This document shows positions 46,259-63,859 of a stretch of DNA of 64,000 nt, one piece after another. Made by a program: the position numbers and the translations under genes. Position 1 is the first letter of the stretch. Each line of letters starts with the position of its first letter. Source of the DNA: Fidelibacterota bacterium (lineage in GTDB: Bacteria; Fidelibacterota; UBA2242); assembly GCA_049975265.1 (NCBI GenBank), contig JBNGDF010000003.1, positions 103,665 to 167,664 of the forward strand, read 5' to 3'. The notes beneath the pieces were generated by a model. That model was given only the letters and a program-made list of their open reading frames with translations. It was not told the DNA's origin and searched no databases.

Positions 46259-47587
46259 GTGAATAGGAGAGATTTGAGATTATCTGGAAGTATCATCCTG
46301 TTGATGGGCTGTCTGTTTAATGCCGCATTGTCTGCCACCGGTTCAGCGGACATTCATGTCTGGGAGATGCAGGAAATTGTCCTGAAAGCGGAAAAGGTAT
46401 ATGATAATTATTATACCGATGTCTGCTGCTGGGTTGACCTGCAGGGTCCCGATTTTTCCCTGCGGATTTACGGCTTCTGGGACGGTGAAAATATTTTCAG
46501 GGTACGCTTTGTTGCGACTAAGCCGGGAAAATGGCATTGGCGCAGCGGCTCAAACCAGGCGGATGATCCCGGACTCAACGATATTGCCGGGCAATTCACC
46601 GCCGTCGAGTGGACGGAGATGGAGAAACAGGAGAATCCCAACCGGCGCGGATTCGTGCGCCCGACACCGAACGGGCATGCCCTGCAGTACGCAGACGGGA
46701 CACCCTTTTTTATGGTGGGCGATACCTGGCTGGCAGGGTCCACCTGGCGACTGCCTTTTCGTAACGCAACGCCCCCTGATAAGTATGAACCGGTTCCGGG
46801 AATCGGTTTTGAGGACGCCGTACAATATCGGAAAAAACAGGGATTTAATTCGGTGAGTATGATCTCCTGCTTCCCGAATTGGGATTCCGATGGCAAGCCG
46901 AGCACCTATGCCGATTCAAACGGAATCTTCGTCAGAAATGCCTGGGAAAAATTCGGCTATGACGTTTCCGATGCAATTGATCCGGATGATTTAGGTGAAT
47001 TAAGCTACTGGGGCACTTTGACGGCAAAGGATATGCGCGATGAATCCGGGAATTTGCCCTTTGCAATGTCCCGCGATCACCGCGGCGTTTCTGATTTTAA
47101 CCGGATCAACCCGAAATATTTTCAGAGTCTCGATCAGAAAATGGACTACCTGTCAGGGGAGGGTTTTGTGCCGTTGCTGGAAACAGTGCGCAGGGATGTG
47201 GGACCATCCTGGAACGCCTATTTTGATTTCAATGAAACCTTTGCCCGCTTTGTGCAGTATCTGATTTCCCGCTACGGCGCCTATAATATGATTTTCAGCG
47301 GAATTCATCTCGACTGGATACCACGGGATTTCAGTCTGACGGCGGAGGAGTTTAACGAAGCATTGACGTATCATTTACACAAGTACGGACCGCTGCCGTT
47401 TGGTCAACCGGTTTCGACGCTGATCAGCAGCTCGACCTATTCGGTGTTTGGTCATCATGAAGATTGTCCCTGGCTGACGATGCACAGCGTGGGTAATAAA
47501 CCCCGGGACCATCGGGTCGCCGATTCGCTTGAAATCATTTTCCGGCTGGAGCCACCGTTCCCGGTCATCAACAGTAAAATCAAATAA
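46259..47587 (+). CDS. DUF5060/DUF4038 (apiosidase/GH140-like) protein, probably C-terminally truncated
   Basis: GFWDGENIFRVRF..PGKW, LQYADGTPFFMVGDTW, RKKQGFN, INPKYFQSLD, ISRYGAY; ends abruptly at PVIN-SKIK inside the opposite gene. Confidence 0.75.
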   Translation: MNRRDLRLSGSIILLMGCLFNAALSATGSADIHVWEMQEIVLKAEKVYDNYYTDVCCWVDLQGPDFSLRIYGFWDGENIFRVRFVATKPGKWHWRSGSNQADDPGLNDIAGQFTAVEWTEMEKQENPNRRGFVRPTPNGHALQYADGTPFFMVGDTWLAGSTWRLPFRNATPPDKYEPVPGIGFEDAVQYRKKQGFNSVSMISCFPNWDSDGKPSTYADSNGIFVRNAWEKFGYDVSDAIDPDDLGELSYWGTLTAKDMRDESGNLPFAMSRDHRGVSDFNRINPKYFQSLDQKMDYLSGEGFVPLLETVRRDVGPSWNAYFDFNETFARFVQYLISRYGAYNMIFSGIHLDWIPRDFSLTAEEFNEALTYHLHKYGPLPFGQPVSTLISSSTYSVFGHHEDCPWLTMHSVGNKPRDHRVADSLEIIFRLEPPFPVINSKIK

Positions 47588-48304
47588 TTGTTCAAGATTC
47601 CGGATCATCATTTTGCTGCGGTACCATGTGCCGCCGGTGGCACTGACAAAGAGTTTACCATTATAGAGGGCGATGCTGTCGTTATAGGCATATACCGTCA
47701 GAAAACGATTATCCGATTCCCGTAACCAATTCGTCAGTTTTTCGCCATGCCGGAGGCTGTCTTCATAACCGTAATTGCTGTCGATAAATGAAATTCTTTC
47801 GACAATGCCGGGGATTTTTTCAGTTCCATGTAGATACCCGAAAATGAAACTGCCGCCGCCGCTGTGACTGTTCAGGGCGATTCTTAAATCCTTCGACGGG
47901 AATCGAGTGGCGACCGAATCAACAATGTCGTGAATTACTACAGAACTGTTGGGATATTTACGCCGCCAGGCCGGCCAGCTTTTAAGATCGTTTTCCAAAT
48001 AAGCAACGACAATGTTGCGATCTTTAATCCGATTTCGGAGGTAACGGGTCTGGGCGGCGATATGCTGGATATTGTAATGCCAGTCGTCGCCATCCTGCAA
48101 CTGTTTGCCCATCGTCCATTCCGTGCTGTTGCCGTTGGGCAAGGCATAGAAGATTAGGAGGGTGGGTTTGCGATGTTTAATTTTCGGTGCATCAATGGTA
48201 ATTTTGACATCTTTGGGATAGCAAAAAGAGCTGATGGTGGTCGATGTACTCCGCGAGCATTGAAGACATTGTAGACCGAGTAATAGAAGGATTATGCGTT
48301 TCAT
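47375..48304 (-). CDS. Putative alpha/beta-hydrolase-like lipoprotein; last ~60 aa probably run-through after truncation
   Basis: Signal ending CLQC; NSHSGGG nucleophile-elbow-like motif; 213-nt convergent overlap with the upstream gene. Confidence 0.6.
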   Translation of the reverse strand: MKRIILLLLGLQCLQCSRSTSTTISSFCYPKDVKITIDAPKIKHRKPTLLIFYALPNGNSTEWTMGKQLQDGDDWHYNIQHIAAQTRYLRNRIKDRNIVVAYLENDLKSWPAWRRKYPNSSVVIHDIVDSVATRFPSKDLRIALNSHSGGGSFIFGYLHGTEKIPGIVERISFIDSNYGYEDSLRHGEKLTNWLRESDNRFLTVYAYNDSIALYNGKLFVSATGGTWYRSKMMIRNLEQLFDFTVDDRERWLQPENDFKRIGDPMVPGFITHAVHRQPGTIFMMTKHRIGRAADQRRNRLTKRQRSVLV

Positions 48305-48308
48305 CGTG

Positions 48309-49976
48309 CTATTTCAAATATAGCACTTTTATTGTTTTTGTGTAAGATGAATTCCTTAAACGGATGAAATACAGTCCGCTGCCGTAATTGCTGTTGAAAT
48401 TCCAGTGAATGGTATGCTTACCCCGATTTTGGACTGAATTGATAATGGATTTGGTATATTTACCATCGAGAGAGAAGATAGATATTTCCGTATGGGCAGT
48501 GACAGGAATCTGATAATGAACCGTTAGGATGGCATTGAAAGGATTCGGAAAACAGGAGATGAGCAAATAATCATCGGGAATGTCTGGATTTTCAAAGGCA
48601 ATTCCAGTATTGACCTGGCGGGTTGAAAGTTGGAAAGATTCAAAACTGTTTAAAAAGTGTAAGCGAGTGTTAACCATACCGGGATGATTGGAATTTTGCG
48701 GATATTTGAAACCGGCATGTGTCATCGTCCCGGTATCCAGAATATAAACCAGTTTATCGGTAGTCAAGATACCGTCACTTGAAATTCTGACATGGCAGTC
48801 ATCGTCCAGATAGATGGCTATATACCCGGGATGATCAGCGGCACCATACATACCGCCAATCCAGCGGTTTTCAAAATAATCAGAATTTGAATACAAGCGA
48901 GGGATAATTATCGATTGGGGAATGTTTTCGTTACCCACAGACTGTTCCAGACGGCCGTACCACGCATTGGTAGCACTGCCTGTTAATTTTGTAATAACGA
49001 CTGCACCATCATACGCAGCTGATTCATCAGAGCCATTAATCGTCAAGGTCTGATAGCGAAATTCGGGTTGGACCTGAAAAACAGCCTTGAGAACATTTTC
49101 GGGATGCAGAACCTGCCGATTGGTAAGATCGTACTCCATCTCATCTATCAATTGATGCAAGCAAAGGTTGGTAAAAACAACTGGTTCATACGGAGTACAG
49201 TGAATAACCGATTTGTCGGTTTTATGAATAATTGTGACCGAACCAATTCCGTAGACCTTTCCTGTCCGGTCAGGCTTCAGACATAACGCCGTTTTTTCAT
49301 CGATGCCGATCCCAACGAGATCTTCATGATAATCCTGGATGCGACGGGCCAGCATCGGAACCAGGCGACCCAGCCGACCGCGGGGATGAAAATGTGAATC
49401 AGTTATAACGCCGGGCAGAATTTGCAGAAAATCATCTTCAAACTGCATGTCCGTGGAATATGGATTGTATGCTGCGTCTTCGGGGTAAAGTGAACCGTAC
49501 TGTGCGGAAAATGATACCGATCCCTCAATTGCCAGACCGGCACTGGTGCCTCCAATAACACCGCCATTTTCGAATACATAGTGAATAGCATCTTCAACTA
49601 AAGTGTTTTTCCAGGTTTTCACATAATCCCATTGATCACCGCCCTCGATAAAAATACCTTTTGCCGAGATAAGCTCTTTAAAGATCGCTGAATCGTTCGC
49701 GGCTGTTCTTGTTGCAATTTGCAATGAGTGGGAAGCCGGATCCGCACCGCAACTGATGAAGTCGTCCGCGTAGCCTTGGGCGACACTGCTGACGTCGATA
49801 TTAATTATTTTTCCGCTGTCAGCCTGCTGCACAAACCAGATATAGACTGGTGCCACCCATGACCCCGGATAATAGGCATCGCTGCCACCGCCCATCATGA
49901 GCAGCGATCCCTGCGGAAATAGAAGCACCGGAATCAAAAGAATCAGAATTGAAAACAATCTAAAGATTTTTTTCAT
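48309..49976 (-). CDS. Secreted cyanophycinase-like S51 peptidase with T9SS C-terminal sorting domain
   Basis: Signal peptide; EGGDQ, GTSAG (Ser), TDSHF..RGRLGRL (His), GIDE (Glu); C-terminal FPNPFN...SGLYFIRL...KVLYLK. Confidence 0.85.
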   Translation of the reverse strand: MKKIFRLFSILILLIPVLLFPQGSLLMMGGGSDAYYPGSWVAPVYIWFVQQADSGKIINIDVSSVAQGYADDFISCGADPASHSLQIATRTAANDSAIFKELISAKGIFIEGGDQWDYVKTWKNTLVEDAIHYVFENGGVIGGTSAGLAIEGSVSFSAQYGSLYPEDAAYNPYSTDMQFEDDFLQILPGVITDSHFHPRGRLGRLVPMLARRIQDYHEDLVGIGIDEKTALCLKPDRTGKVYGIGSVTIIHKTDKSVIHCTPYEPVVFTNLCLHQLIDEMEYDLTNRQVLHPENVLKAVFQVQPEFRYQTLTINGSDESAAYDGAVVITKLTGSATNAWYGRLEQSVGNENIPQSIIIPRLYSNSDYFENRWIGGMYGAADHPGYIAIYLDDDCHVRISSDGILTTDKLVYILDTGTMTHAGFKYPQNSNHPGMVNTRLHFLNSFESFQLSTRQVNTGIAFENPDIPDDYLLISCFPNPFNAILTVHYQIPVTAHTEISIFSLDGKYTKSIINSVQNRGKHTIHWNFNSNYGSGLYFIRLRNSSYTKTIKVLYLK

Positions 49977-51457
49977 TTGAACACTCTGTAAATGGGGAAA
50001 CGATTTTTTTTATCGATACTCTCTCGAAAAAATGTGTCGGAGAACAGGCTGTACATCATCGAAGGTTCAAGGAGGAGTACCACTTTCCAGGGAAATTTCT
50101 GTTCAACGGGGATTAACAATGATCCCTTTTCCACGGTTATAGATTCAGGCTTCTGAACTTCGCTAATGACCCGGTTTTCATAACGATTATAGACGTCGTC
50201 AAATTCCGTTTCAAACCGAATATATTTAACTGCTTCAAGCTCAATCTGTCTGCCTTTTTTAAGTGTTTTATATTCAATCGCATGTCGATCCAGAAGGGGG
50301 GTAAACACATCAATATATTCACGGGGGATTAGGTATTTTTCCGGCCGGCGAACGCTGTTTTTGACAATTCGCCGATGCATGAAATTTGCCGTTTTCACTC
50401 TGATTGTCTGATCTGTTTCTTTATCAATGACGTTAACATCGTGAACTGAACCGGGCTGTGATCCCCAGAAATAGTTCGTCGGAATAAAATCTTGCAGGGT
50501 TGCTTTCCGGGCATTTTCGACGATTTGGATGTCATGTTCATATCTTTCGGAAGCGTGAATAAACTGGTCGAAAATTGTTAGATAAGCCTCGATTCTCTCC
50601 GTCAGGTTGGCATCCGGATTGGCAGCATTTCGAAAAATCCCGGATTCGATGATAAAAGACAGAACACTATAGGCACCGATGCCGTTGCGTCCGTCGTCCG
50701 GCTCCAGAGTGCTGAAACGGAGTTCATCATCCGGTGGAAGACCACCGACATAATAGCGGGTGTAATTGATATTTTTCTCATGCATTACCGGTTTGATTCG
50801 ATCAATCCATTCAACACCGGTCTCGTAAAGACATTGTGAGTAAAGCGGATTATTGGCGCAATCCATCATGATCAACGGCCATTTCTGCCAGCCGTGGTCA
50901 GCGTAATCTTTATTATCCCGCGTGAATTCATGACAATCGATGGCAACGTGAGGCATGATCTTCCGAGCCGTTTCGTGAAGAGTCTGGATTTCCGGTTGTG
51001 AAAGCAGGCGATGATCGCGGTTAAGGTCCATATCGTTGGCATTCCGCCGCTGATTGTGTTCTGCTCCATCGGGATTCACCATTGGCATGATCCACAAATC
51101 AACATAGTCGGGCAGATAGGCAGGATCTTCTTTTATTTTTTTAATCAGATAAATTAGGGCATCTTTGCCGGCTGGTTCGTTGCCATGTTGCTGGGCATAG
51201 AAAAACAGTTTCAATTTTTTCAGTTGATTATTGTGAAACAGATGAACCAGATGAAGAGATCGTCCCTCAACCGATTTTCCGGCTTCAGTCAATTCAATAA
51301 AACCGGGTTTCTCAATTGCGGTTAAGTAATTTGTTAATGTCTGATAATTAATTGGTTTCTTGATATTTTGATAATTGGAAGGAATCTGACCATTGAGCGG
51401 ACAAAGAGTAAGCCGCAGGATCAGCAAAGAGATTATCAGATGGTGTTTATTGATCAT
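49973..51457 (-). CDS. M14-family zinc carboxypeptidase, exported
   Basis: GKSVEGR, QQHGNEPAG, PMVNPDG, RRNANDMDLNRD, DCHE; signal peptide. Confidence 0.88.
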   Translation of the reverse strand: MINKHHLIISLLILRLTLCPLNGQIPSNYQNIKKPINYQTLTNYLTAIEKPGFIELTEAGKSVEGRSLHLVHLFHNNQLKKLKLFFYAQQHGNEPAGKDALIYLIKKIKEDPAYLPDYVDLWIMPMVNPDGAEHNQRRNANDMDLNRDHRLLSQPEIQTLHETARKIMPHVAIDCHEFTRDNKDYADHGWQKWPLIMMDCANNPLYSQCLYETGVEWIDRIKPVMHEKNINYTRYYVGGLPPDDELRFSTLEPDDGRNGIGAYSVLSFIIESGIFRNAANPDANLTERIEAYLTIFDQFIHASERYEHDIQIVENARKATLQDFIPTNYFWGSQPGSVHDVNVIDKETDQTIRVKTANFMHRRIVKNSVRRPEKYLIPREYIDVFTPLLDRHAIEYKTLKKGRQIELEAVKYIRFETEFDDVYNRYENRVISEVQKPESITVEKGSLLIPVEQKFPWKVVLLLEPSMMYSLFSDTFFRESIDKKNRFPIYRVFK

Positions 51458-51484: not shown

Positions 51485-52903
51485 TCAACTACCTGGTATG
51501 GTTTCATCATCGTTGATTTTCGGCGCCATGGTAATTGTGGTTATTCCGAATACCATCAGGATTACCACTGATATATAATTCATAAATGCATAAGGCAGAT
51601 ACGCAAATGTGGATACCCCAATGGTTCCGGTAATGTAGACTCCGGCCATGCTCCAGGGGATCAGGGGGACGATTATTGCCCCGGATTCTTGGATAATGCG
51701 GGATAAATTTTTTGCCGCCAGGTTTTTCTTTTTATAAATCGGTGCCAGCAATTCGCCGGGAATGATCATTGACAAATAAGAGCTTCCGGTAACAAGTGCC
51801 GTGGCCAGTGATGTGATGATGGTAGTGGCAACCAAACTCCAGACTTTATCGGCAAATTTCATGACCCGGTCCAGAAGAGCATTCAATAAACCGGTTTTTT
51901 GCATAATACCACCAAAAGCGAAGGCAGTGAAAGCCACCAGTTGAGTTTCCATCATGCTCATCATGCCGCCTCTTGAAAGCAGGTTATCAACTAACGGTAC
52001 GCCGGTGTGCGCGGGATATCCGCTGTTCAGTGCTTTGCTGATCACAGCAATTGATTCATGCTGGAAAATGATGCTTAAAAATACAGCGATGAATGACGAT
52101 AACAACATCCCGGGAATAACCGGTTTTTTCGTAAATGCGCAATAAAAGACAATAATAATTGGCAGTAATAACAGAATATTAAATTGAAAACCGTTTCTTA
52201 AGGTTGTCATAATTAAGGTGATATTGGCTGATTCAACAGTATCGGGTTGGTATTTCAGTCCGATAAAGAAGTAAAAAACTAAGCCAATCAACCATGCCGG
52301 TCCCGCCGACCAGATCATGTGTTTGATATGGTCAAAAAGATTTGATCCGGCAGCGACCGGGGCCAAATTTGTTACATCTGAAAAAGGGGACATTTTATCA
52401 CCGAAATATGCACCTGCAACAATTGCACCTGCAGCTGCTCCAAGTGGGATTCCTTGAGCCATTGCAATCCCAATAAATGCCACTCCAAGTGTCCCGATCG
52501 TACCCCAGGAAGTACCAGTAGCAATTGATGAAACAGAACAAACAATGCAGGCCGTCACCAGGAAAAACTTGGGTGAAATCAGTTTCAGTCCGTAATAGAT
52601 AATGAGCTGTATTGTACCAGAACATAACCATGAACCAATCAGAATACCGACACAGATCATAATCAGCAATGCGGGAAGTGCTTTATGAATACTTTCAACA
52701 ATACCATCCTGCATTTCCTGCCAGGATAATCCCAGATAAAGAGCAACGCATCCTGAAATTACCGCCGCGCATACCAACAGAACCTGAGGTTTGATCTTAT
52801 AGATACCATAACCAACAATTAGCAGCAGTGCCATAGCCAGAATTGGGATTAGCGCGACAATAATTGTTGGTTCGGATTTTCGTTTTCTTTTTCGCTTTGT
52901 CAT
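51485..52903 (-). CDS. NhaC-family antiporter (family includes amino-acid antiporters)
   Basis: GTSWGTIGTLG, GAYFGDKMSPFSD, SRGGMMSM, LIPW; start moved to ATG 52903. Confidence 0.9.
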   Translation of the reverse strand: MTKRKRKRKSEPTIIVALIPILAMALLLIVGYGIYKIKPQVLLVCAAVISGCVALYLGLSWQEMQDGIVESIHKALPALLIMICVGILIGSWLCSGTIQLIIYYGLKLISPKFFLVTACIVCSVSSIATGTSWGTIGTLGVAFIGIAMAQGIPLGAAAGAIVAGAYFGDKMSPFSDVTNLAPVAAGSNLFDHIKHMIWSAGPAWLIGLVFYFFIGLKYQPDTVESANITLIMTTLRNGFQFNILLLLPIIIVFYCAFTKKPVIPGMLLSSFIAVFLSIIFQHESIAVISKALNSGYPAHTGVPLVDNLLSRGGMMSMMETQLVAFTAFAFGGIMQKTGLLNALLDRVMKFADKVWSLVATTIITSLATALVTGSSYLSMIIPGELLAPIYKKKNLAAKNLSRIIQESGAIIVPLIPWSMAGVYITGTIGVSTFAYLPYAFMNYISVVILMVFGITTITMAPKINDDETIPGS

Positions 52904-52920
52904 TGCTTGTTCCCGTGAAT

Positions 52921-52964
52921 ACAAAGAACAGACCTCCCGATAAGGGATACCGGAAGGCCTGTCC
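52921..52964 (-). terminator. Internal terminator or stabilising hairpin in the locus
   Basis: Minus strand ACAGGCCTTCCGGTA-TCCCT-TATCGGGAGGTCTGT (15-bp stem with G-U pairs) followed by TCTTTGT. Confidence 0.65.
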
Positions 52965-52980
52965 AATACTTCATTGATTA

Positions 52981-54024
52981 CTAAAGTTGAATCAGATTTT
53001 CAATCATAACGATGCCTTCGGTTTCTGTAGCGATCCAGATAACATCATCATAAATTTCCAGCTCAATCAGGACGTCTTCCGGTAAAGCTCCACCAGTTGA
53101 TTCAGTGGTGAATTGCTCAAATGTCATATCCGGCAGAATTTTCAAAAGTCCGCCACCTGACAAGGCACACCAGATATTACCGTATTTATCGGCTTCCAGA
53201 TCGTTCATGGGATATTTTAAAGGCTCAATATCCGTTGAATCATAAGTTGCTGCAACAGTCGATCCTGTAATTTTATACAGGTTATTGTTACCAGCATCAG
53301 TAACCCAGGCGTTATCATCAGGATCGAGGGTCAGTGCAAAGGTGTACTCTCCCGACAGCGCTGATACTTCAGTCCAAGTTGTTCCAGTTCGATAGACGAC
53401 ACCGTAAAAGGTACAGATCCACATTCTGCCTTGTGAATCTTCCTTCAAATCATATATTTCCGGACGACCGGTTGACAAATTGATATCGTCCGCTGTCCAG
53501 AGGGTCCAGTTTGCACCATGATCGGTCGAAACATAAATCCCCTTCACCGTTCTGTCACTGATGTAAATATTCCCGTCGGAATCGGTCTGGACACTACGAG
53601 TATAATCGTTAAAGCAGGTATCGACCTCGCCGGAGGTACCGTCGGCTTTCAGATATCCAACGCCATAATGGGTACAGAACCACTTGGTGTTCTGATTGTC
53701 TACAGCCATATAGAAAACACGATCTTCCATATTGCCGAGACCGATATCATCGGCGTTGTAGACAGTCCAGCTCGCCAGATCATTGGATAACTTGGAGACA
53801 TTTGCAACGCCGGTGGCCGCGTCTTTCTGACCACCAAACCAGATGTTTCCGTTGTTGTCAAAATCGATACAATATACGGCATTGTAAGGCAGATCGCTGT
53901 TTGTGTTGTTAAATACCGTATAAACAGGCTCTTTCACTTCATCTTTGTTATCATCGCCATCGCAGGACATGAACGGCAAAGACATCAGTGCAAGTGCCAC
54001 GAGCAAAATAGTGAGTTTTTTCAT
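52981..54024 (-). CDS. Beta-propeller lipoprotein
   Basis: Lipobox FMSC after AAGGAGG RBS; repeated D..GNIW / D..GRMW blade motifs. Confidence 0.8.
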   Translation of the reverse strand: MKKLTILLVALALMSLPFMSCDGDDNKDEVKEPVYTVFNNTNSDLPYNAVYCIDFDNNGNIWFGGQKDAATGVANVSKLSNDLASWTVYNADDIGLGNMEDRVFYMAVDNQNTKWFCTHYGVGYLKADGTSGEVDTCFNDYTRSVQTDSDGNIYISDRTVKGIYVSTDHGANWTLWTADDINLSTGRPEIYDLKEDSQGRMWICTFYGVVYRTGTTWTEVSALSGEYTFALTLDPDDNAWVTDAGNNNLYKITGSTVAATYDSTDIEPLKYPMNDLEADKYGNIWCALSGGGLLKILPDMTFEQFTTESTGGALPEDVLIELEIYDDVIWIATETEGIVMIENLIQL

Positions 54025-54065
54025 AATAACCCTCCTTAATTGGTTAATTTTCCATCTCACGTTAT

Positions 54066-55052
54066 TTACATTCGAAAGTTTATTCCAAACTGATGAACAT
54101 TATTCAGATACTGTTTTCCCGTGAAAGCGTAGGAAATTGAGCTGTTTATTCCCGAAATCCGGATATTCAGACCACCACCCAGGGAGAAATTCGTTACATC
54201 ACTGTTGAGTGTGTAGGCTACTCGTATAAAGGCAATATCGGAGAAATTGTATTCACCACCAATGACCAGTCTTTCGGTGTTATCGGATGGAACAATAACA
54301 TCGATGACGGTAGTCAGGTTGGGCAATGGATCCAAAGCAATTCCTAACTGAAGTACCTCCGGTAACCGAAAGCCCGGTGTCAATCGTTCTATTCTTGGAT
54401 TATCTTTCTGATTCCGGGCCAATTCTTCATTAATTCGATCTGTTACATCGTCACCTTTCAGAGAATCAATTTTTACCCCGATGTTGCGGATGGCCATTCC
54501 CAGCCGAAGATTCAGAAAATCCGTGCGATAAATAGAGCCAATATCAAATGCAATCTGTCCCGCTGACTCGTTCCAGATATATTCGTAAGCATATTTTGCT
54601 GTCAGCCCGAAAGAGAACCGGTCAGTCATTCGCCTGGCATAACTGATTCCGCCAGCCATGTTCCCCGAACTGTAATATTCATCAGTTCCATCCGGTTCAT
54701 AGACTGTAGTGATTTCCATATCATCCATATAGAATGATGTAAAAGATAAGCCGATAGCGTTATTCGAACCGATTTGCATTGCCATGCCAACGTATGATAA
54801 TTTTGTGTCGAAAAACCAATTAGTCTGTGACAAATTTATATCGAATTTACCGTTGTTGATTGTTCCGGCAGGATTCCAGTAAAGAGCTGCTGCACCATTG
54901 GCAATTGAAACAGCTGCACCACCCATTGCCGCTCCCCGCGGTTCGACTGGTATTTGCAGAAAGTTCATTCCTGATTGTCCTAGATTTCCCTGAGCAGTCA
55001 GAACATTGATCAGGCTTAGAATCAATATTAATAGTATTTTAAATATTTTCAT
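54066..55052 (-). CDS. PorV/PorQ-family outer-membrane beta-barrel
   Basis: FLQIPVEPRGAAMGG, ALYWNPAG, FSFGLTAK, FDIG; C-terminal beta-strand. Confidence 0.85.
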   Translation of the reverse strand: MKIFKILLILILSLINVLTAQGNLGQSGMNFLQIPVEPRGAAMGGAAVSIANGAAALYWNPAGTINNGKFDINLSQTNWFFDTKLSYVGMAMQIGSNNAIGLSFTSFYMDDMEITTVYEPDGTDEYYSSGNMAGGISYARRMTDRFSFGLTAKYAYEYIWNESAGQIAFDIGSIYRTDFLNLRLGMAIRNIGVKIDSLKGDDVTDRINEELARNQKDNPRIERLTPGFRLPEVLQLGIALDPLPNLTTVIDVIVPSDNTERLVIGGEYNFSDIAFIRVAYTLNSDVTNFSLGGGLNIRISGINSSISYAFTGKQYLNNVHQFGINFRM

Positions 55053-55065
55053 GATTCAATCTCCT

Positions 55066-56970
55066 TTACCTGATTACCGCAAAACGGCCGATTTTATCAC
55101 CAATTTTTGACTCAACATGAAAGAAATACATACCCGAAACAATCGGGCGCCTTTCCGAAGTCAGCAGATTCCATTCTTCCCGGCCATAATCACCGGTATG
55201 GTCAATTGTCTGAACAAGGTCTCCATCGATAGTAAATATTCGGATAGTACAAGGGGAGGGAAGATTGGTAAATGCAATATTCCGGATTGGTTCGCCAAAA
55301 ACCGTATTCCCAAGCCGGGATTCATCCCAGGGTGCTGAGACCACGTATGGATTTGGGACGACTCGGATTTTATCCAAATCTGCTTTCGCCTCAGCCGGAA
55401 GTGTCTGGGGCTTGGCCTGTTGGGTACTGGGTTGGTTCAGGATATTGTTGATATCGGCCAATTTCAGCGATTCTATCAGATTTCCATCGACGACTTTATA
55501 GGTTGTCAAATTGTAGTAATAGTTGAATCCGTTATATACATTCTGATCAGTAAATTCATACTTATCTTCAATGACGGTGGGATCGTTTTTATAGATCATC
55601 GGAATGGTATCCAGCACATCCCAGCTGCGGAGAGTAGGATCGGTTGTGCGGTACAGAATATACCCTTCGAGGTCATTTGCTGGCGGATTCAGTGATTCAT
55701 TCAGATAGGTAACATCAATTTCATTACTCCATGAAAGTTGAACCTGCTGATCAGCGACATTGACTACCAGTTCAGGCACCGGTGGTGGAATGAGGCTGTT
55801 GAAGCCGTCAGCATAGTGTGCAAGCAGATTGTCAGTTACCTCGAGAAGATCAGTCTCATTATCACCAACAGTACAACCTACCCAGATTTCAGCCTTTTCA
55901 CCGGGTTGAATAGAGAATGGACCGTTGCAGATATAGGCGACCATAGCACCACCGATCAGATTGCCGCTTGCGTCCCTAATCCGGGTTGTAGCCGGGTCAT
56001 CGAAATGCGTCCCATTGATTGGATTATCACCCAGGTGAAAGTAATCATCAACATTCAGAAGCGGGTGTCGATGAAAAAAGGAGGTATCGCTCTTCATGAG
56101 ATACCAACTGACCGAATCCCAGAATGCACTGTTAACGGCCACTTCATCAATTGTGACATCAATCCAGTGCCAGTCAGTGATTCCCAGATTATTCGGAGTT
56201 TTCAGGAAAGTTATTCCTGATAGAAAAGGATCGTCTTCATCCCATTCATTAGAGTAATTGTCCGAATCATAGAAATAGACCGTTTCTCGGGATTTATCAA
56301 AATTGATACAGTCGTCCGCCCATTCGTTGTATTCATTTCCAATACCACCAATATCCAGGTCGGAGTAGAAGTTGAAATACATGCTGTCAAGAGCGAAGCT
56401 GTTCTGATTCTCAATTTCGAATTTCAGGATGATGAATTTATCTGCGGTTGGTAATCCCCAGGAATAAATCGTCTGATAGACCCGGATATTCATCAGTTTA
56501 TCTTGTTCTCCATTGTTGGCATAGCGCCAGTTTGTTGAATCGCTATACGCGCAGTAGCTGTCCTGTTGAGACATAAAAATTGGATTTCCGTCATTATCTT
56601 TTATAGGCCACCCCGATTCCGGCCAGGTTTCCGGATTATCACTCATGGCAATTTCACCATTGCCGGCATCAAATCCGCCGATAGCATCAAATTCCTCGTA
56701 ACGGCCATCGGCCGCACTGATCACATTTACCGGTTGACCGATCATCAGACATTGGCGGTACATACAGATGTGACCGGAATTGATTGGATATTCCAGTGTT
56801 TTCTCAAATTGCCCACCATAGGGATAAAACTGACCAATGTTTGTTGTAAAATAACCTACTTTACCGACATTATGAGTCCCGAATACCCGATCCTCCAGGC
56901 CGGCGAAAACCGGATGAATTAAAACAAAGGTGAGTAAAATAAGAACAAATATATTAAGTGATTTCTTCAT
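55066..56970 (-). CDS. Surface protein with T9SS-type C-terminal domain (putative substrate-binding partner of the TonB receptor)
   Basis: Signal peptide; C-terminal IRVVPNPY..IAFTNLP..CTIRIFTIDGDLV..WNL...SGMYFFHV..GRFAVIR. Confidence 0.8.
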   Translation of the reverse strand: MKKSLNIFVLILLTFVLIHPVFAGLEDRVFGTHNVGKVGYFTTNIGQFYPYGGQFEKTLEYPINSGHICMYRQCLMIGQPVNVISAADGRYEEFDAIGGFDAGNGEIAMSDNPETWPESGWPIKDNDGNPIFMSQQDSYCAYSDSTNWRYANNGEQDKLMNIRVYQTIYSWGLPTADKFIILKFEIENQNSFALDSMYFNFYSDLDIGGIGNEYNEWADDCINFDKSRETVYFYDSDNYSNEWDEDDPFLSGITFLKTPNNLGITDWHWIDVTIDEVAVNSAFWDSVSWYLMKSDTSFFHRHPLLNVDDYFHLGDNPINGTHFDDPATTRIRDASGNLIGGAMVAYICNGPFSIQPGEKAEIWVGCTVGDNETDLLEVTDNLLAHYADGFNSLIPPPVPELVVNVADQQVQLSWSNEIDVTYLNESLNPPANDLEGYILYRTTDPTLRSWDVLDTIPMIYKNDPTVIEDKYEFTDQNVYNGFNYYYNLTTYKVVDGNLIESLKLADINNILNQPSTQQAKPQTLPAEAKADLDKIRVVPNPYVVSAPWDESRLGNTVFGEPIRNIAFTNLPSPCTIRIFTIDGDLVQTIDHTGDYGREEWNLLTSERRPIVSGMYFFHVESKIGDKIGRFAVIR

Positions 56971-56988: not shown

Positions 56989-59520
56989 TTAGAATTTGAA
57001 ATTTAGACCGAGGTATATAATGCGCGGCATACCCCAATTCAGCGGATTTGCGGCATATTCTTTTGTCCGACCGATCATTTCATCGGGTTTACCTGTATAG
57101 GGATCAACACGAACAACATTTCTCCGATCGGTCAGGTTTTTAATCTCCAAATAAGGTGTGATGCTCATAGTGTTGAATAATTTTAATTGATAGTCCATTT
57201 TCAGATCCAAAGTCCAGTTTTCAGGCAGTCGTTTGTTATTGATTTCATAGGGCTCGGTGACACCGCGAATACCTTTTGTATAGGGCAGACCGCTGCCGTA
57301 CTGGAATAGTAGGGTTGTTCTGAAATTGAAAAATCTGAATATCCCAGTTGCATTGACGGTGTGCCGTTGATCAAAGTTCAAGGGGAAAAATTTAAGTGTC
57401 TGGCGGTTGGCTTCTTCAACGCCAACCCGTTCAAGAGGTCCGGAGCTACTACCTTCGGCAACAGCATATGTATAGGCGATTTCACCGGTCAAATGAGTAC
57501 CATATATTTTCCGAAATTGAAATTCAATGCCATTATTGTATGCAAAATCCTCATTGATATGAAGCGTAAAGGTTTCCCACCAGTCCGGATTATCACCGGC
57601 AAAGAAGGTCCGTGTTCCCAGCAGATTGGTAATCTTTTTACTATATACGGAAATTTTTAAAAGATAATTATCGAACAACTGCTGGTTCAAGCCGAATTCA
57701 TATGTGATGGTTTTTTCCGGTTTCAAATCACCGTTGCCGTAGCGACCATTTCCATCTTTTAAGGAGATCAGGATGTTATCCTTATAGTCGATTTTGCCAT
57801 CGGATTTTGCATCATAGCTGAGGGGGGGATTATCGTCAGACTGAGACTTGTAAAGAATCTCATAGTCGGGACGCTGAAAGTAGTGTCCGTAACCGAAGTG
57901 AAATACTGTTTTGTCACTGACTGGATAGGATGCTGCCAGCCGGGGACTGAGTTGGGTGTGAACTTTTGATTTTTTATAACTCATGGTGTTCCCGTTTACT
58001 GCATCGAACGGATTTTCCCAGTAGTGCGTATTGGCTGCTGCTAAGTCAAAGCGTAGACCGGCACTGATGATGATACTTGAGAAATTCAGTTTGTCTTGAA
58101 TATAGGCAGCAGCTTCATATGGATTTCTGGTGTAGTAATCCATTTGGTGATTGGCATAATAGGGCGGATTGACATAAAACCGGTATATCTCGTGCTGTTT
58201 GAAATAGACGCCCGCTTTGATTTCATTGGATGAATTTGCCTGCCAGAGGACATCACTTTTAATCCCCAATGTTTTCTGCTCATGTTCTTCATAGTCATTG
58301 ACATAATTTAAAGTATAGAATTCTTTGTTTTCATCCCGGGCATATGCAGCACTCAGGTCACTATAATCATAGTCACCGGAATCGTAATGATATTGATTAA
58401 AATGTACATTTACGCTATAATAAAGATTTGAGCGGAGAGTATGTGTCATTGATAGATTGGAGATTTGAGAATTTCTACGTGGTTTCCACCACATCATGTC
58501 CGGAATATAACGCCAGCTATGGTAATAATTCTGATGAATATGGTCAGAAATGCTGGCAGACAGGCCGAGCTTGATGTTGTTGATATGGCGGTCGCTGATT
58601 TTGACAAAATAATTCTGATCTTTACGGAAACCGAAAGGATTACCCATGGCATCCAGCAGGTAACTATCCCGATCATCAAAGGTTGTTGTGAAGAGAAAGT
58701 TTGTTTTTTTCGAAAAGAGTGGTCCGTTTAATCCGAACCGGATGATATTCCGGTTATAATTTTTACTGTCTGTCTCAACCCCGACCTTCGATGATTTTAT
58801 ATCAACATTTCCGTTCAGGTGACTGCTGCCTTCGCGGGTGGTAATGTTGATAATGCCACTCAGGGCATTTCCATATTCAGCACTGTACGTGCCGCTGATT
58901 ACCTGCATTTCGGCAATGGCATTTAGGTTGATGATTTCCGAGGAGGATATATCTGCAAATTGAGGAACAATCACGGCAATCCCATCAACCATATAAGTGA
59001 TCTCTCCCGAACGACCACCCCGAAAATGAAGTCCGTTCCGGCTGACGACACCGGGTTGGGTTACCAATACATCACTTATTGTCGTCGTTGGCAGGGTTTC
59101 GATATCTTCGGAACTAACGCTGTGAGTTGTGGCGCCAATATCCTGTTCAATGATTCGTTTTTGAGCGACGACTACCACTTCATCCATATCAAGAACTGTT
59201 GCCTCCAGCGGGAACTGAACAGTTGCGATCCGACCTGCAAACACCTCGACATTCTCGATCTTCATTGGTTTGTATCCCATCATTTCACAACGGACGTTGT
59301 ATCTTCCCGGAGGAACTTGTAGAATCACATAATTTCCATTTTTATCGCTGGCGGCACCCAGTGAACTGTTTTCGATCAGAATATTTGCACCGACAAGAGG
59401 TGTTGTCTTTTTGCTATCAAAAACAGTCCCGGTAATTTTTCCGTAGTTTGCTGCCTGAAGGGAGAAAACCGAGAAAATCAGCATCATTAAACACCTATTT
59501 CTCATTGAAAAATTAAACAT
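56989..59520 (-). CDS. TonB-dependent outer-membrane receptor
   Basis: N-terminal carboxypeptidase-regulatory-like domain, plug HFRGGRSGEITYMVDG, SAEYGNALSGIINITT, LKPEKT, terminal Phe. Confidence 0.93.
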   Translation of the reverse strand: MFNFSMRNRCLMMLIFSVFSLQAANYGKITGTVFDSKKTTPLVGANILIENSSLGAASDKNGNYVILQVPPGRYNVRCEMMGYKPMKIENVEVFAGRIATVQFPLEATVLDMDEVVVVAQKRIIEQDIGATTHSVSSEDIETLPTTTISDVLVTQPGVVSRNGLHFRGGRSGEITYMVDGIAVIVPQFADISSSEIINLNAIAEMQVISGTYSAEYGNALSGIINITTREGSSHLNGNVDIKSSKVGVETDSKNYNRNIIRFGLNGPLFSKKTNFLFTTTFDDRDSYLLDAMGNPFGFRKDQNYFVKISDRHINNIKLGLSASISDHIHQNYYHSWRYIPDMMWWKPRRNSQISNLSMTHTLRSNLYYSVNVHFNQYHYDSGDYDYSDLSAAYARDENKEFYTLNYVNDYEEHEQKTLGIKSDVLWQANSSNEIKAGVYFKQHEIYRFYVNPPYYANHQMDYYTRNPYEAAAYIQDKLNFSSIIISAGLRFDLAAANTHYWENPFDAVNGNTMSYKKSKVHTQLSPRLAASYPVSDKTVFHFGYGHYFQRPDYEILYKSQSDDNPPLSYDAKSDGKIDYKDNILISLKDGNGRYGNGDLKPEKTITYEFGLNQQLFDNYLLKISVYSKKITNLLGTRTFFAGDNPDWWETFTLHINEDFAYNNGIEFQFRKIYGTHLTGEIAYTYAVAEGSSSGPLERVGVEEANRQTLKFFPLNFDQRHTVNATGIFRFFNFRTTLLFQYGSGLPYTKGIRGVTEPYEINNKRLPENWTLDLKMDYQLKLFNTMSITPYLEIKNLTDRRNVVRVDPYTGKPDEMIGRTKEYAANPLNWGMPRIIYLGLNFKF

Positions 59521-59545: not shown

Positions 59546-60397
59546 TTATTCAGAAATGGTTATATCTTTGGATAAACGTTCCAGATTTGTGATCATCTTT
59601 TCGGCTTTTTCTCGATCCTGCATCGCACACTCAGTCGAGATGGCATTGATCAGCACTGATACAGCTGCGATTGAATTGGTGTACAGGAGATTTTCACTTT
59701 TCACCACCAGAGTTTTATCAGCATAAAAACTCGCTGGAGCCGCTGGTTTATTTGTTATCGCTATTACCTTGCTTCCTTTTTCATGGGCCACTTTCGCCAG
59801 CTCAATTGTTTCAGTCGAATAGGGTGGGAAACTGAAAACAATCATCAGATCTTCTTTATTGATTAATAAGGCTTGTTCGAGAAAAGTTGTAAAATTGTGA
59901 TTATAACAAATGGCATCGATACCGACCTGCATTAATTGATAAGCAAGAATTTGCGACAGGAGGTAAGAAATCCCCAACCCGGCTGTATACACCCGGTGTG
60001 CATGATTAATTAATTCGGTGGCTTCCTTGAAATCTGAAGCATCGATTATCTGTAAAGTTTCATTAATGTTCTTGATGTCCTGATTTGCAACTCTTACCAG
60101 CAGATTAACTAATTCCGAATCGTTAATCAGGGGAAATCTAGCATTATTTTTTAATTGAGATTGAAGACTGTTCGCAACGGTTTCGCGGATTTCACTGAAT
60201 CCTGAAAAACCGACACTTTGTGAAAAACGTACGACCGATGCAACGCTGGTGCCAGTGGCCGTGGCGATCTCGTGAACACTCATAAAGGGAATTTTGTCCG
60301 AATTCTCAATGAAGTAATCAGCGACTTTTTTTAAGTTTTTTGATAAATTAGAATAATATTCACGAATTTGAGCTCTGATTTCAGTTGAATTCATCAT
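59546..60397 (-). CDS. MurR/RpiR-family transcriptional regulator (HTH + SIS)
   Basis: LSKNLKKVADY..SVASVVRF..GFSGF; SIS GLGIS, FSFPPYS, IAIT; ATG overlaps the upstream stop. Confidence 0.93.
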   Translation of the reverse strand: MMNSTEIRAQIREYYSNLSKNLKKVADYFIENSDKIPFMSVHEIATATGTSVASVVRFSQSVGFSGFSEIRETVANSLQSQLKNNARFPLINDSELVNLLVRVANQDIKNINETLQIIDASDFKEATELINHAHRVYTAGLGISYLLSQILAYQLMQVGIDAICYNHNFTTFLEQALLINKEDLMIVFSFPPYSTETIELAKVAHEKGSKVIAITNKPAAPASFYADKTLVVKSENLLYTNSIAAVSVLINAISTECAMQDREKAEKMITNLERLSKDITISE

Positions 60398-61800
60398 GAC
60401 CATCCCATGATAAAAGGTGGAACTAATAATAGAAATCCGACCAGTAGAAAAATGATTTCCAGTGGTAGTAGCCATTTTGCCCATTTTTCCCAGGAAATCC
60501 CTGACAGTGTTAATACTCCAATCGTGATTGCTGAGGTCGGCACAATCATATTACTGAAACCGTCACCGAACTGAAATGCCAGTACAGCTGTTTGCCGGGT
60601 CACACCTACGAGGTCAGCAAGTGGAATCATAATCGGCATTGTCAAAGCCGCCTTGGCGCTTCCTGAAGGGACGAAAAAGTTGATGATTGAATGAACGACG
60701 AACATTGCCTGTGATGCAATGATTGGATGAAGACGATCGATTTTATTTGCCAGTGAGTAAAGCATCGTATCGATAATCCGGCCATCCTCAGCAATGATCA
60801 ATATTCCCCTGGCCAGAACAATAATAAGCGCGGTGCTGACCATGTCTTTGGCACCCGCAACAAAGGCATCCGTGAATTCCCTGACAGATAATTTTCCGAC
60901 AATGCCGATCACAATGCCAGTCAGAAAAAACATAGCACAAATCTCCTCGATGTACCATTGAAATTTTAGGACACCGTAAATCATCCCGATTATACCGGTC
61001 GCAAATGTCCAGAGTGCAAATTTGTGACGTCTGGAAATCCCTGAAAAATTTTCCAGATCTCTCATATGCAGATTCTGACGTTTTTCTTCATCCATGTCAA
61101 AGGTGATACTCTTTTCCGGATGTCTTTTAACTTTCGCAGCATACACCATTACGAATGCAATGGCAATCGCGGTACAGATTACCCAGCAGATCAACCGGTA
61201 ACCAATTCCAGAAAAAAGTGGCAGGTCTGCAATTTGCTGTGCAATGCCGATGGTGAAGGGATTCAGAAAAGCCCCGGCGAATCCGGCACCGGCGCCCACG
61301 AACGGAATGGCAACACCAACCACAGAATCGTAACCCAGTGCGAGGGTAAGAGGGACGAAAATAAGGATAAAGGGGATAACTTCTTCACCCATTCCAAAAC
61401 TGCCACCACCGATTGAGAATATCGTCATAAAGATTGGGATGTACAGAATCTCGATAATTCTGGAGCGGCTATGGGCTTTGGCAACCGCTTTGATCGCGGC
61501 ATCGATGGCCTTGGTTTTTTCCAATATAGCAAAGACACCACCGACAATCAGCACAAAACCAACGATCAGCGCTGCACTTTTATCGGTAAATCCCCGGATC
61601 GGCGCTTTCAAAATTGCCCAGATACCTTGAGGATTGGGGGAAACCGGGTGATAAGAGTCTGCAATAACAATTTCCCGGCCATTCAGCTCAGTTCGATCAT
61701 AATTACCGCTGGGAATGATATATGTTAATATCGCCGTAACGATAATAATTGAAAATATGAGCAGGTATGTATTGGGTGCTTTAAGTTTTCCTAGTTTCAA
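60394..61800 (-). CDS. YfcC / basic amino acid antiporter (ArcD-like) family transporter
   Basis: PNTYLLIF, IPSGNY, GMGEE, NPFTIGIAQ, PSGSAKA, AFQFGDG; TTG start overlapping the cyanophycinase stop. Confidence 0.9.
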   Translation of the reverse strand: MKLGKLKAPNTYLLIFSIIIVTAILTYIIPSGNYDRTELNGREIVIADSYHPVSPNPQGIWAILKAPIRGFTDKSAALIVGFVLIVGGVFAILEKTKAIDAAIKAVAKAHSRSRIIEILYIPIFMTIFSIGGGSFGMGEEVIPFILIFVPLTLALGYDSVVGVAIPFVGAGAGFAGAFLNPFTIGIAQQIADLPLFSGIGYRLICWVICTAIAIAFVMVYAAKVKRHPEKSITFDMDEEKRQNLHMRDLENFSGISRRHKFALWTFATGIIGMIYGVLKFQWYIEEICAMFFLTGIVIGIVGKLSVREFTDAFVAGAKDMVSTALIIVLARGILIIAEDGRIIDTMLYSLANKIDRLHPIIASQAMFVVHSIINFFVPSGSAKAALTMPIMIPLADLVGVTRQTAVLAFQFGDGFSNMIVPTSAITIGVLTLSGISWEKWAKWLLPLEIIFLLVGFLLLVPPFIMGWS

Positions 61801-62681
61801 TATATTACACTCCTTTTGACCATATCGAAGCGCTGCCCGGAAGTGAGAATATGCATTTTTATTCCGACACAAGAAAGCTGGTTTGCTAGGTCGGATTCAA
61901 TATGAGTTGCTTTTGATGCATCATAGACAATAACCGCATGTTCTCCAAAAACGCGAAAGGTATTATCCGGATTAACGATAATTGCTGTGGATTCATCAAT
62001 TCCAATTCCCAGAAGTTTCGGATTTTCCAGAACGAGCGAAATTAATCGGTTATGACGTTTGCGGGTGATAAAGTGCTGATCGATTATTGCGTTCTCAATC
62101 AGCCCGAATCCCGGAGTTGTGACAATATTGCCTTTTTGAATGGTATAAAATGAGCGGGTCGAATCCTGATTAATCAATTCGTCGCCAATAATCATAATTT
62201 TACTCATTACTGCCGCGCCGGCACTTGTTCCGGCGATTACGGCGCCATTGTAGTATCGTTCTTTGATCGCAGACAGAAGACGTGTTCCGTTTAAATCTGC
62301 CGTTAGTCGGCGCTGGTCTCCGCCTGAGAAAAAGAGTATATCGGCTTTTGAAATCTGATCAAGAACATCATCAGAGTTAGCTGAGTCATGAACAACATAT
62401 AAAAAGCTGCAGTCATTAATGCCGAGTTTTTTAAATTGTCCGACCTGATACTCCGCCGTGGTAACAGGACAGCTACTGGCATTGGGAATGACGATGACTT
62501 TTGGTTGAGCATTATTTGATAGCGAGATCATCTTTTCCATGAGATAATCCGGTCGATTACCACCACCGATAATAAATAAATGGCCTGTTGGTCTATCCGG
62601 TTTTGAACAATGACTTAATGATAATATAACAAACGCGAAAATGAACGAATATCTGCGAAATTTAAATACCATAGTCAGCAC
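61797..62681 (-). CDS. cphB: Cyanophycinase (peptidase S51), predicted lipoprotein
   Basis: FIIGGG, FFSGGDQ, AGTSAGAA, IDQHF..RKRHNRL, GIGIDEST; lipobox-like LSHC. Confidence 0.9.
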   Translation of the reverse strand: MLTMVFKFRRYSFIFAFVILSLSHCSKPDRPTGHLFIIGGGNRPDYLMEKMISLSNNAQPKVIVIPNASSCPVTTAEYQVGQFKKLGINDCSFLYVVHDSANSDDVLDQISKADILFFSGGDQRRLTADLNGTRLLSAIKERYYNGAVIAGTSAGAAVMSKIMIIGDELINQDSTRSFYTIQKGNIVTTPGFGLIENAIIDQHFITRKRHNRLISLVLENPKLLGIGIDESTAIIVNPDNTFRVFGEHAVIVYDASKATHIESDLANQLSCVGIKMHILTSGQRFDMVKRSVIY

Positions 62682-63767
62682 TTACTTTTTGATTAATTCC
62701 CAGAGAATCCTGGCGCTGTTTATTAAATCCTCGACAAGAATAAACTCGTTGTTGGCATGTGGATTTTGGGCGCCGATTCCAATATTTATCGTGATTATGC
62801 CCTTTTCATTCAATGAATTTGCATCGCTGCCTCCTGCAGAGACAATGGGTTCCGGTTTTAGGCCAACGGCCAGCAGAGCATTGGTGATACGTTGAAACGT
62901 AAATGATGATTCAGGGACTTCATAAGGTTTAAAATCCCAGTGCGATTCAAACTCGACAGTTGCGTTTTCAGCACTGGCCTGTTTAATGAATACATCTTTA
63001 ATTTCTTTGATTTTCCTGTCGACCTTGGGAATTTTTAATGAACGCACTTCACCTTCCAGTTCCACTAGTTCTGGAATCACATTGATGGCTGTACCACCGT
63101 TAAATTTTCCGATGTTGGCGGTTGTTTCATGATCAACACGTCCAAGTTTCATCGTCGCTATCGCTTTCGCGGCAACCTGGATTGCACTTATCCCGTTTTC
63201 CGGATGTATTCCGGCATGTGATGCTTTCCCGTGAATTTTTGTGGTGAATCCTTTTGCTCCATAAGTCTTATTAATAAATTTTCCGGGTCTTAGCGATGAA
63301 TCAAATACAAAACCGTGTTTGATCTGTTCCGGCAGAACCAGAAATTGAGAACCAAAAACGTCCAGTTCCTCACGGATTGTAAATGCAATTGTAAAATCTT
63401 TAATAGGAACATTGTTGGTGAATGCTTTTTCCAGACAGAATAAAATTGTGGCAATTCCGGCCCGGTTATCTGCCCCTAATATCGTGGTCCCATCGGATGT
63501 AATTCTGTCATCAGTTACGATCGGTTTGATATTTTTGGTGCTCCGAGCGGTATCCATATGGGATAGAATAACAAAATTTCCACCATTGCCAATTCTGACC
63601 TGCAAATTACCGGAATTTCCGTTAGATGATACGCCAGCCCGATCTTCACTGGCTGATAAGTTAAGTTCATTGAGGAATGCCTGAATATAATGGTTGACCG
63701 GGGCTTCCTGTTTAGAAAGGGCATCGATTTTAACCAGTTCCAGAAACAGTTCAATCAGACGGTTCAT
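62682..63767 (-). CDS. M20 family metallopeptidase, peptidase T-like
   Basis: SHMDT, SDGTTILGADNRAG, REE, GKASHAG, ETTANIG, GGSDAN, C-terminal H..NE; start 63767 or 63782. Confidence 0.9.
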   Translation of the reverse strand: MNRLIELFLELVKIDALSKQEAPVNHYIQAFLNELNLSASEDRAGVSSNGNSGNLQVRIGNGGNFVILSHMDTARSTKNIKPIVTDDRITSDGTTILGADNRAGIATILFCLEKAFTNNVPIKDFTIAFTIREELDVFGSQFLVLPEQIKHGFVFDSSLRPGKFINKTYGAKGFTTKIHGKASHAGIHPENGISAIQVAAKAIATMKLGRVDHETTANIGKFNGGTAINVIPELVELEGEVRSLKIPKVDRKIKEIKDVFIKQASAENATVEFESHWDFKPYEVPESSFTFQRITNALLAVGLKPEPIVSAGGSDANSLNEKGIITINIGIGAQNPHANNEFILVEDLINSARILWELIKK

Positions 63768-63801
63768 TGCTGTTTGTTCCATAAATGAAAACCTTATTAC
63801 G

Positions 63802-63859
63802 AATGTATAAAAATACGTAACATTTATTACAATATAGTTGATATATTGAGTCAAATCAA
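63802..63859 (-). promoter_or_regulatory. Putative promoter and operators of the cyanophycinase locus
   Basis: Minus strand TTGATT-17-TATATT (63859-63831), followed by GTAA-N6-TTAC palindrome (63817-63830) and ARG-box-like AATGTATAAAAATACGTA (63802-63819). Confidence 0.5.

Follow-up and report, generated by a model that had tools for sequence, protein, structure and literature searches.

Cyanophycin breakdown is described as a process of two steps, with three known dipeptidases. Here, we analysed a 64,000-nt stretch of DNA from an uncultured Fidelibacterota bacterium (hereafter the window; assembly GCA_049975265.1, contig JBNGDF010000003.1, forward-strand positions 103,665 to 167,664), in which the gene for an M14 zinc carboxypeptidase lies between those for an NhaC/ArcD-like transporter and a secreted S51 cyanophycinase-like protein. 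Cyanophycin utilization loci with a cyanophycinase, iadA and a transporter have already been described, as far as the available text of two reports shows (PMC10206079, PMC6243061). The locus of Salinivirga cyanobacteriivorans, as presented there, resembles that of the window in having cyanophycinases, one of them with a Por-type tail, a transporter and no synthetase; the window differs in that iadA is missing, a PepT-like M20 peptidase stands in its place and an exported M14 is regularly present in addition. The accessible passages on the S. cyanobacteriivorans locus mention neither an M14 nor an M20 (PMC10206079, PMC6243061). Secreted cyanophycinases of Thermoanaerobaculia have been described as well, with no mention of an M14 in the accessible part of that paper (PMC8528874), and in Firmicutes and Bacteroidota the dipeptidase has yet to be discovered, according to the available sections of PMC10206079. 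Our search of the open literature, on which subscription papers and supplements may also bear, returned no paper on the M14 family or the M20 in cyanophycin loci.

The initial annotation of the window had proposed that the M14 enzyme hydrolyses beta-Asp-Arg in place of IadA or IaaA. We found instead that the M20, not the M14, swaps with iadA in cyanophycin operons. We tentatively read the M14 as a periplasmic carboxypeptidase that would trim C-terminal backbone Asp units off cyanophycin oligomers; the missing beta-Asp-Arg dipeptidase would be the M20.

The M14 protein is a predicted exported carboxypeptidase

The M14 gene and its active-site segments are located as follows.

49973..51457, minus strand: M14 zinc carboxypeptidase of 494 amino acids (aa), with a predicted signal peptide (about aa 1-24), a carboxypeptidase-A-fold domain (about 25-310) and a C-terminal domain (about 315-494)
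50930..51187, minus strand: zinc ligands H91, E94 and H176 and anchors R137, N146 and R147 of the M14, placed by conservation in 200 aligned homologues
50645..50695, minus strand: pocket helix and catalytic strand of the M14 with D255, R257, N258 and E271, placed by alignment

The open reading frame (ORF) is intact, and its overlap with the start of the secreted S51 gene, already noted in the initial annotation, holds: the TGA of the M14 gene (49975-49973) shares 4 bp with the ATG (49976-49974) of its downstream neighbour. The protein passes the PF00246 cut-off (66.5 vs 21.6 bits) but not that of PF24827 (20.5 vs 25 bits). The HxxE...H motif and the Arg127/Asn144/Arg145-type anchors are all present, and E271 aligns with the catalytic Glu270. 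All seven residues (H91, E94, H176, R137, N146, R147 and E271) were unchanged in 50 of 50 homologues; in a larger alignment, H91, E94, N146, R147, H176 and E177 were kept in 200/200 proteins and R137 in 199, while E271 was present in all 199 homologues reaching that position. The ORF reads as an intact zinc carboxypeptidase with conserved catalytic residues. Its N-terminus resembles a Sec signal peptide, as do most of the 50 homologue N-termini, some of which have lipoboxes (judged by eye), and a periplasmic location is predicted from this feature.

The predicted structure (predicted local distance difference test score 93.4) has the carboxypeptidase A fold, superimposing on 7eqx with a Z of 28.4 and a root-mean-square deviation (rmsd) of 2.4 over 248 residues. 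The best sequence and fold matches, to model residues 21-310, are bacterial Nna1-like cytosolic carboxypeptidases (CCPs; 4A37, 4B6Z, 3K2K) and carboxypeptidases B, A and O (Z 26-28, rmsd 2.4-3.1, ∼250 residues). Unlike Nna1 and the CCPs, to which it is ∼20% identical, the M14 lacks the PF18027 N-terminal domain, is predicted to be exported and has an extra C-terminal domain. For the latter, Foldseek gave no match at E≤0.001 and the best Z was 4.5, that is, no clear solved match, which does not imply a new fold. Searching the ESM Atlas with the M14 returned only unnamed M14 clusters. In a profile search, a core family was followed by a score gap and then by a sister family, where two of the ten clusters looked up bore Bacteroidales names. 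At E≤1e-40, 49 of 50 genomes carried a single M14 copy. One carrier, Geothrix limicola (L082; L and G numbers are our handles for loci and genomes), is in culture.

The M14 family is linked to cyanophycin scavenging

We analysed the best 80 of 373 core-family relatives found (GTDB loci) and the best 80 of 256 sister-family relatives (metagenome loci), identifying locus neighbours by tblastn. Genome-wide searches covered 50 of the 80 core loci; the other 30, Holophagae-type loci of which 29 have iadA beside the M14, were left out. Kin are not independent, and the co-occurrence counts given here do not correct for relatedness.

A cyanophycinase scoring over the cut-off was present in 47 of the 50 M14-positive genomes, a cphA-like gene in only 5. 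Among 61 genomes of the window's phylum, the M14 family (E<1e-100) occurred in 9, all of which carry cphB (9/9 vs 2/52 of the others). At the level of the locus, an S51 gene lay within 10 kb of the M14 in 55/80 core loci, where we also observed a TonB-dependent receptor (50 loci), yfcC (43) and rpiR (33). Sister-family loci contained an S51 gene in 30/80 cases, 27 of them among the 43 loci of at least 10 kb. The association covers several phyla and differing gene orders, and we regard a link of the M14 family to cyanophycin as very likely. The window itself has an exported cyanophycinase and a transporter and no cphA, the features by which cyanophycin utilization loci are recognised. The family is an uncharacterised one, predicted to be exported and tied to cyanophycin scavenging.

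The locus, or the M14 within it, could act on another peptide or poly-amino acid. The family is known from sequence; the secreted S51 protein falls below the cyanophycinase cut-off; 25/80 core loci show no S51 gene within the sequence available; Acidobacterial loci also contain M28, C45 and CapA/MslH-like genes; and two Alteromonadaceae copies sit in unrelated neighbourhoods. Yet CphB of the window exceeds the curated cut-off and has the substrate motifs, iadA or iaaA is repeatedly found at these loci, and nearly all M14-positive genomes encode a cyanophycinase, so that we consider a different substrate quite unlikely.

Some of these neighbourhoods have further features. The two Alteromonadaceae M14 genes (loci L055 and L058) are flanked by rpoD and dnaG, at a distance from cyanophycin genes, in genomes that also carry cphA, iadA, iaaA and a CphZ-like gene. 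In Acidobacteriota (L076-L121), an M28 peptidase (25/80 loci) and a CapA/MslH-like gene (22/80) accompany the locus in either of two gene orders. A C45 hydrolase is encoded in five loci of the core family and six of the sister family.

The M20 peptidase, not the M14, alternates with iadA

The initial annotation had noted the lack of IadA and IaaA at the locus, and the genome search extends this: in the window's genome (95.3% complete, 66 contigs) we found no iadA over the cut-off and no match to PF01112 (IaaA), cphA or a CphZ-like gene, the last with a profile that did match the control genome G077. Four weak iadA matches were two NagA, an adenine deaminase and one protein without an NCBIfam family at 1e-15. 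The contig stops 146 bp before the first gene of the operon, that of the M20, so a gene could have been missed in a gap; five relatives of the same order (82-97% complete; range for the order 75-97%) likewise lack iadA and PF01112. A locus without a known isoaspartyl dipeptidase was thus correctly described, but the M20 at its head had been passed over as a candidate.

62682..63854, minus strand: PepT-like M20 peptidase (TIGR01883 257 bits, cut-off 274), with its true start probably near 63767-63782
61797..62681, minus strand: cyanophycinase CphB with a lipobox-like N-terminus (TIGR02069 198.5 bits, cut-off 126.6)

Replacement of IadA or IaaA by the M14 is contradicted by their coexistence. 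iadA is the gene next to the M14 in 31/80 core loci, all of one clade (TIGR01975 500.6 bits), and lies near it in 12/80 sister-family loci, a second and separate case. Of the 50 M14-positive genomes, 10 have iadA, 31 PF01112, 36 either and 14 neither, although PF01112 includes glycosylasparaginases and therefore overcounts IaaA. In G074 and G077, the M14 coexists with two iadA, iaaA and a CphZ-like gene, and an iaaA-type gene lies within the M14 locus in L059 and L181; an iaaA-cphB pair in G100 and an iaaA cluster in G067 are on contigs other than that of the M14 and were not counted as the same locus. The M14 is probably not the IadA substitute, while the other part of the initial view, an exported M14 devoted to cyanophycin scavenging where the genome lacks iadA and iaaA, is supported. 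In its strict form, replacement would mean that the M14 is the sole beta-Asp-Arg hydrolase and evolved to supplant IadA/IaaA. This could apply to the window's genome and to the 14 that lack both genes; of these 14, however, 8 encode the M20, an M42-like gene lies at the locus in at least 3, and with iadA or PF01112 in the 36 others and iadA so often beside the M14, we find the idea barely credible.

The M20, on the other hand, alternates with iadA. In sister-family operons, the order cphB-yfcC-iadA-M14 (L207, L212, L236) stands against M20-cphB-yfcC-M14 (L231, L235, L243, L247), with gene families confirmed by scan for those genes scanned, and iadA and this M20 were present together in none of the 160 loci (80 core and 80 sister). 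Across the 61 genomes of the phylum, the M20 (E<1e-80) was found in 11/11 cphB-positive relatives and in 0/50 others. At E<1e-70 it adjoins cphB or is one gene away in 15/15 genomes, 14 of which lack iadA and the fifteenth of which has a partial, unlinked copy. None of 16 in-frame rows (of 18) showed a signal peptide on the M20. The protein aligns over its full length with PepT-like M20B peptidases (TIGR01883; PDB 3GB0 and 3RZA, E 1e-56 and 3e-51) and differs from them as a locus-linked subgroup tied to cphB; we found no isoaspartyl activity of PepT-like M20B enzymes in the literature. beta-Asp-Arg resembles the beta-alanyl dipeptides that are cut by some M20 enzymes. On balance, the M20 may well be the cytoplasmic beta-Asp-Arg dipeptidase filling the role of IadA.

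In G037 (91% complete), NhaC is followed by the S51 gene without an M14 between them and M20-cphB-yfcC is kept; the genome-wide search found no match to the M14 family, iadA, PF01112 or CphZ. A short unrelated ORF fragment (L165:2107-2613) occupies the place of the M14 there. In Sumerlaeota and Planctomycetota (L054, L059, L067, L075, L083, L090, L158), a divergent M42-like peptidase with no obvious signal peptide lies beside S51, yfcC or NhaC and is possibly a third occupant of the iadA/M20 slot.

The M14 is not a CphZ and appears to lack the canonical determinants of basic specificity

CphZ/AotO of A. baylyi (PDB 8EIN/8EIP) shares with the M14 the M14 fold, the H-E-H zinc site, the R/N/R anchor, the catalytic Glu and the association with cyanophycin genes. 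The two differ in that the M14 has a signal peptide and another C-terminal domain and occurs mostly outside Proteobacteria. The analogy with CphZ drawn in the initial annotation proved weak. 8EIN gave no sequence match to the M14 at E≤1 or E≤10, and CphZ is not among the fold matches listed for the M14 model, which does not speak against a structural match. We therefore recovered CphZ-like proteins, tied them to 8EIN and aligned them with the M14 family, which gave an hhalign probability of 53% over 91 columns. The M14 also falls short of the cut-off for CphZ membership, given in the available text as >30% identity and >70% coverage to AbCphZ (PMC9974463). In CphZ, Arg is bound by D222 and E223 and the Asp amine by D181, according to the same text (PMC9974463). 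D222/E223 map to R257/N258 or G256/R257 of the M14, so that the Asp/Glu pair is not found at the mapped position; this mapping is indirect, as the direct profile alignment to CphZ-like and RimK-associated AstE/AspA proteins stopped short of the pocket. D181, two residues after the third zinc ligand (H+2), has no counterpart, F178 being at H+2 and the invariant E177 at H+1. By these alignments, the M14 protein is not a CphZ.

For the pocket map we used the carboxypeptidase numbering. Profile alignments place R257 at position 255 (ungapped, one bacterial family) or 254 (against carboxypeptidase D-like proteins), and N202 maps to position 207, where Asn or Thr is found. On this map, neither of the canonical determinants for basic residues is present, with no Asp or Glu at the mapped 255 or 207. 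An Arg at 255, as in carboxypeptidase O and the CCPs, is possible for the M14; 19/199 homologues have Leu in place of R257. Arg255 marks acidic and Asp255 basic C-terminal specificity, in the accessible parts of two papers (PMC4230590, PMC9925722). We found no paper on the active site of MpaA.

Organisation of the operon

The minus-strand gene order is M20, cphB, yfcC, rpiR, TonB-dependent receptor, 634-aa protein, PorV, propeller, NhaC, M14 and secreted S51. The genes other than M14, M20 and cphB are as follows, all on the minus strand.

60394..61872, minus strand: YfcC/DcuC-family transporter (family scan)
59546..60484, minus strand: RpiR-family regulator (family scan)
56989..59520, minus strand: TonB-dependent receptor (family scan)
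55066..56970, minus strand: 634-aa exported protein, conserved between the TonB-dependent receptor and PorV
54066..55052, minus strand: PorV/PorQ-family outer-membrane barrel (NF033709 183.7 bits)
52981..54060, minus strand: beta-propeller lipoprotein, conserved across loci of the Marinisomatota/Calditrichota form
51485..52966, minus strand: NhaC/ArcD-like transporter (TIGR00931 462 bits, over the cut-off; NF052307 356 bits, under)
48309..49976, minus strand: secreted S51 cyanophycinase-like protein with a C-terminal tail of the type IX secretion system (T9SS) type

The secreted S51 protein scores 101.8 bits against TIGR02069, under the cut-off of 126.6, and retains GGDQ, GTSAG and DxHF..R.R..R, which we take to be the functional motifs of cyanophycinases. 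The YfcC/DcuC-family protein likely imports the dipeptide or a basic amino acid. Regarding the NhaC/ArcD-like transporter, the genome has no match to an arginine deiminase family, so Arg/Orn antiport for that pathway is unsupported here. The 634-aa protein matched no Pfam or NCBIfam family; it is 58-87% identical across nine related loci, in each of which its gene separates those for the TonB-dependent receptor and PorV, and is a candidate polymer-binding surface protein.

Directly after the secreted S51 gene, a lipoprotein-like 309-aa ORF with an HSGGG motif (47375-48304) overlaps the end of an opposite-strand DUF5060 gene; it matched no family, and the 80 core loci contain no homologue of it. 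Elsewhere in the window, 38328-41898 holds ablA (lysine 2,3-aminomutase), a sodium:solute symporter and ablB (beta-lysine acetyltransferase), with both enzymes over the cut-off, and likely serves the synthesis of the osmolyte N-acetyl-beta-lysine. A second yfcC (G000:C10:3189-5874; L249), whose product is 79% identical to the YfcC of the window, is divergent from an exported-looking L-Ala-D/L-Glu epimerase-like gene.

A proposed role for the M14 in oligomer breakdown

In the pathway that we propose, the secreted S51 enzyme would attack cyanophycin granules at the cell surface, oligomers would enter via the TonB-dependent receptor and periplasmic CphB would free beta-Asp-Arg. The M14 would cut the alpha-peptide bond at ends that CphB handles poorly, namely a bare Asp or an Asp still carrying Arg. 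YfcC would then take up beta-Asp-Arg for a cytoplasmic enzyme to split: IadA in Holophagae and some sister loci, in the window the PepT-like M20, and in Sumerlaeota and Planctomycetota perhaps an M42-like peptidase. Since a cytoplasmic dipeptidase and YfcC would already be in place, we see a step on oligomers as the best explanation for an exported M14. We favour cleavage of a backbone bond, as a tentative choice, over periplasmic hydrolysis of the dipeptide, another substrate, debranching and, least of all, strict replacement.

Several observations weigh against this proposal. Characterised CphE enzymes are reported to yield Asp-Arg dipeptides unaided, in the accessible part of the paper (PMC3235067), so the need for end-trimming is not established. 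The alignments behind the pocket map have low identity and differ from one another by one residue. D255 and R257 occur in 180/199 homologues, the other 19 having Gly/Ser255 and Leu257 (Gly and Leu in L116, for instance); in our trees (FastTree and a quick tree) the Gly/Ser-Leu state arose twice (approximately unbiased test p=0.006, for a group defined after the first tree). As the two positions change jointly and both types sit in cyanophycin loci, the pair may be a structural salt bridge. As for the M20, IaaA-type genes co-occur with it in 6/15 genomes, Thermoanaerobaculia loci have neither iadA nor M20, and G037 is one genome in which the loss of the M14 is possibly recent. Finally, an Arg side chain could be held by the conserved acidic residues E245, E/D252 and D254, and the NhaC/ArcD-like transporter flanks the M14 in 10/80 core loci, which fits the release of free amino acids.

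The last two points would suit a periplasmic beta-Asp-Arg isopeptidase that acts in parallel to IadA or the M20 and frees Arg and Asp for NhaC/ArcD or YfcC, being CphZ-like without being a CphZ. E177 is likewise conserved in the core family, and the Arg of the dipeptide offers a free carboxylate for R137, N146 and R147, as in CphZ; P. aeruginosa ArcD is unable to import the dipeptide (both from the available text of PMC9974463). Such an enzyme would, however, duplicate the function of an iadA in its own operon in two clades. It would have to recognise Arg with no Asp or Glu at the mapped 255 or 207, the position of E245 is Arg in 46/70 sister proteins, and G037, which has no other known dipeptidase, lacks the M14. 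We consider this role rather unlikely.

The M14 might also strip side-chain Arg from cyanophycin or its oligomers, leaving poly-aspartate for the clan MH aminopeptidases (M20, M28, M42). Conserved residues outside the core (R180, R288, K366, D420, Y423, R425 and R429) point to an extended binding surface, most forms of the locus encode a clan MH peptidase, and the closest Foldseek matches are Nna1-like carboxypeptidases. But cyanophycinases recognise a P1 beta-Asp-Arg, and the removal of Arg would destroy the substrate of those encoded alongside the M14. The M20 has no signal peptide, the conserved C-terminal residues are lost in the sister family, and carboxypeptidase B does not attack cyanophycin, according to the accessible text (PMC2043089). 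Debranching is therefore distinctly unlikely. Cleavage of Arg by the M14 outside the cytoplasm, as the initial annotation had it, is in all a somewhat doubtful rival to backbone trimming.

Implications for cyanophycin scavenging

The locus supplies two candidate enzymes of cyanophycin breakdown: the M20, which trades places with iadA between operons that otherwise match, and the M14, whose conservation and predicted export imply an extra step in the pathway. A bolder and unlikely version of backbone trimming gives scavengers in Marinisomatota, Calditrichota, KSB1, Acidobacteriota, Sumerlaeota, Planctomycetota and Bacteroidales a periplasmic zinc exo-cyanophycinase that frees whole beta-Asp-Arg units, together with a PepT-like M20 beta-Asp-Arg dipeptidase. 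If true, the M14 would be the first non-serine cyanophycinase, and the M20 a fourth, independent type of beta-Asp-Arg dipeptidase that would fill part of the gap named for Bacteroidota in the available text of PMC10206079. The loci described here extend cyanophycin scavenging to several uncultured phyla.

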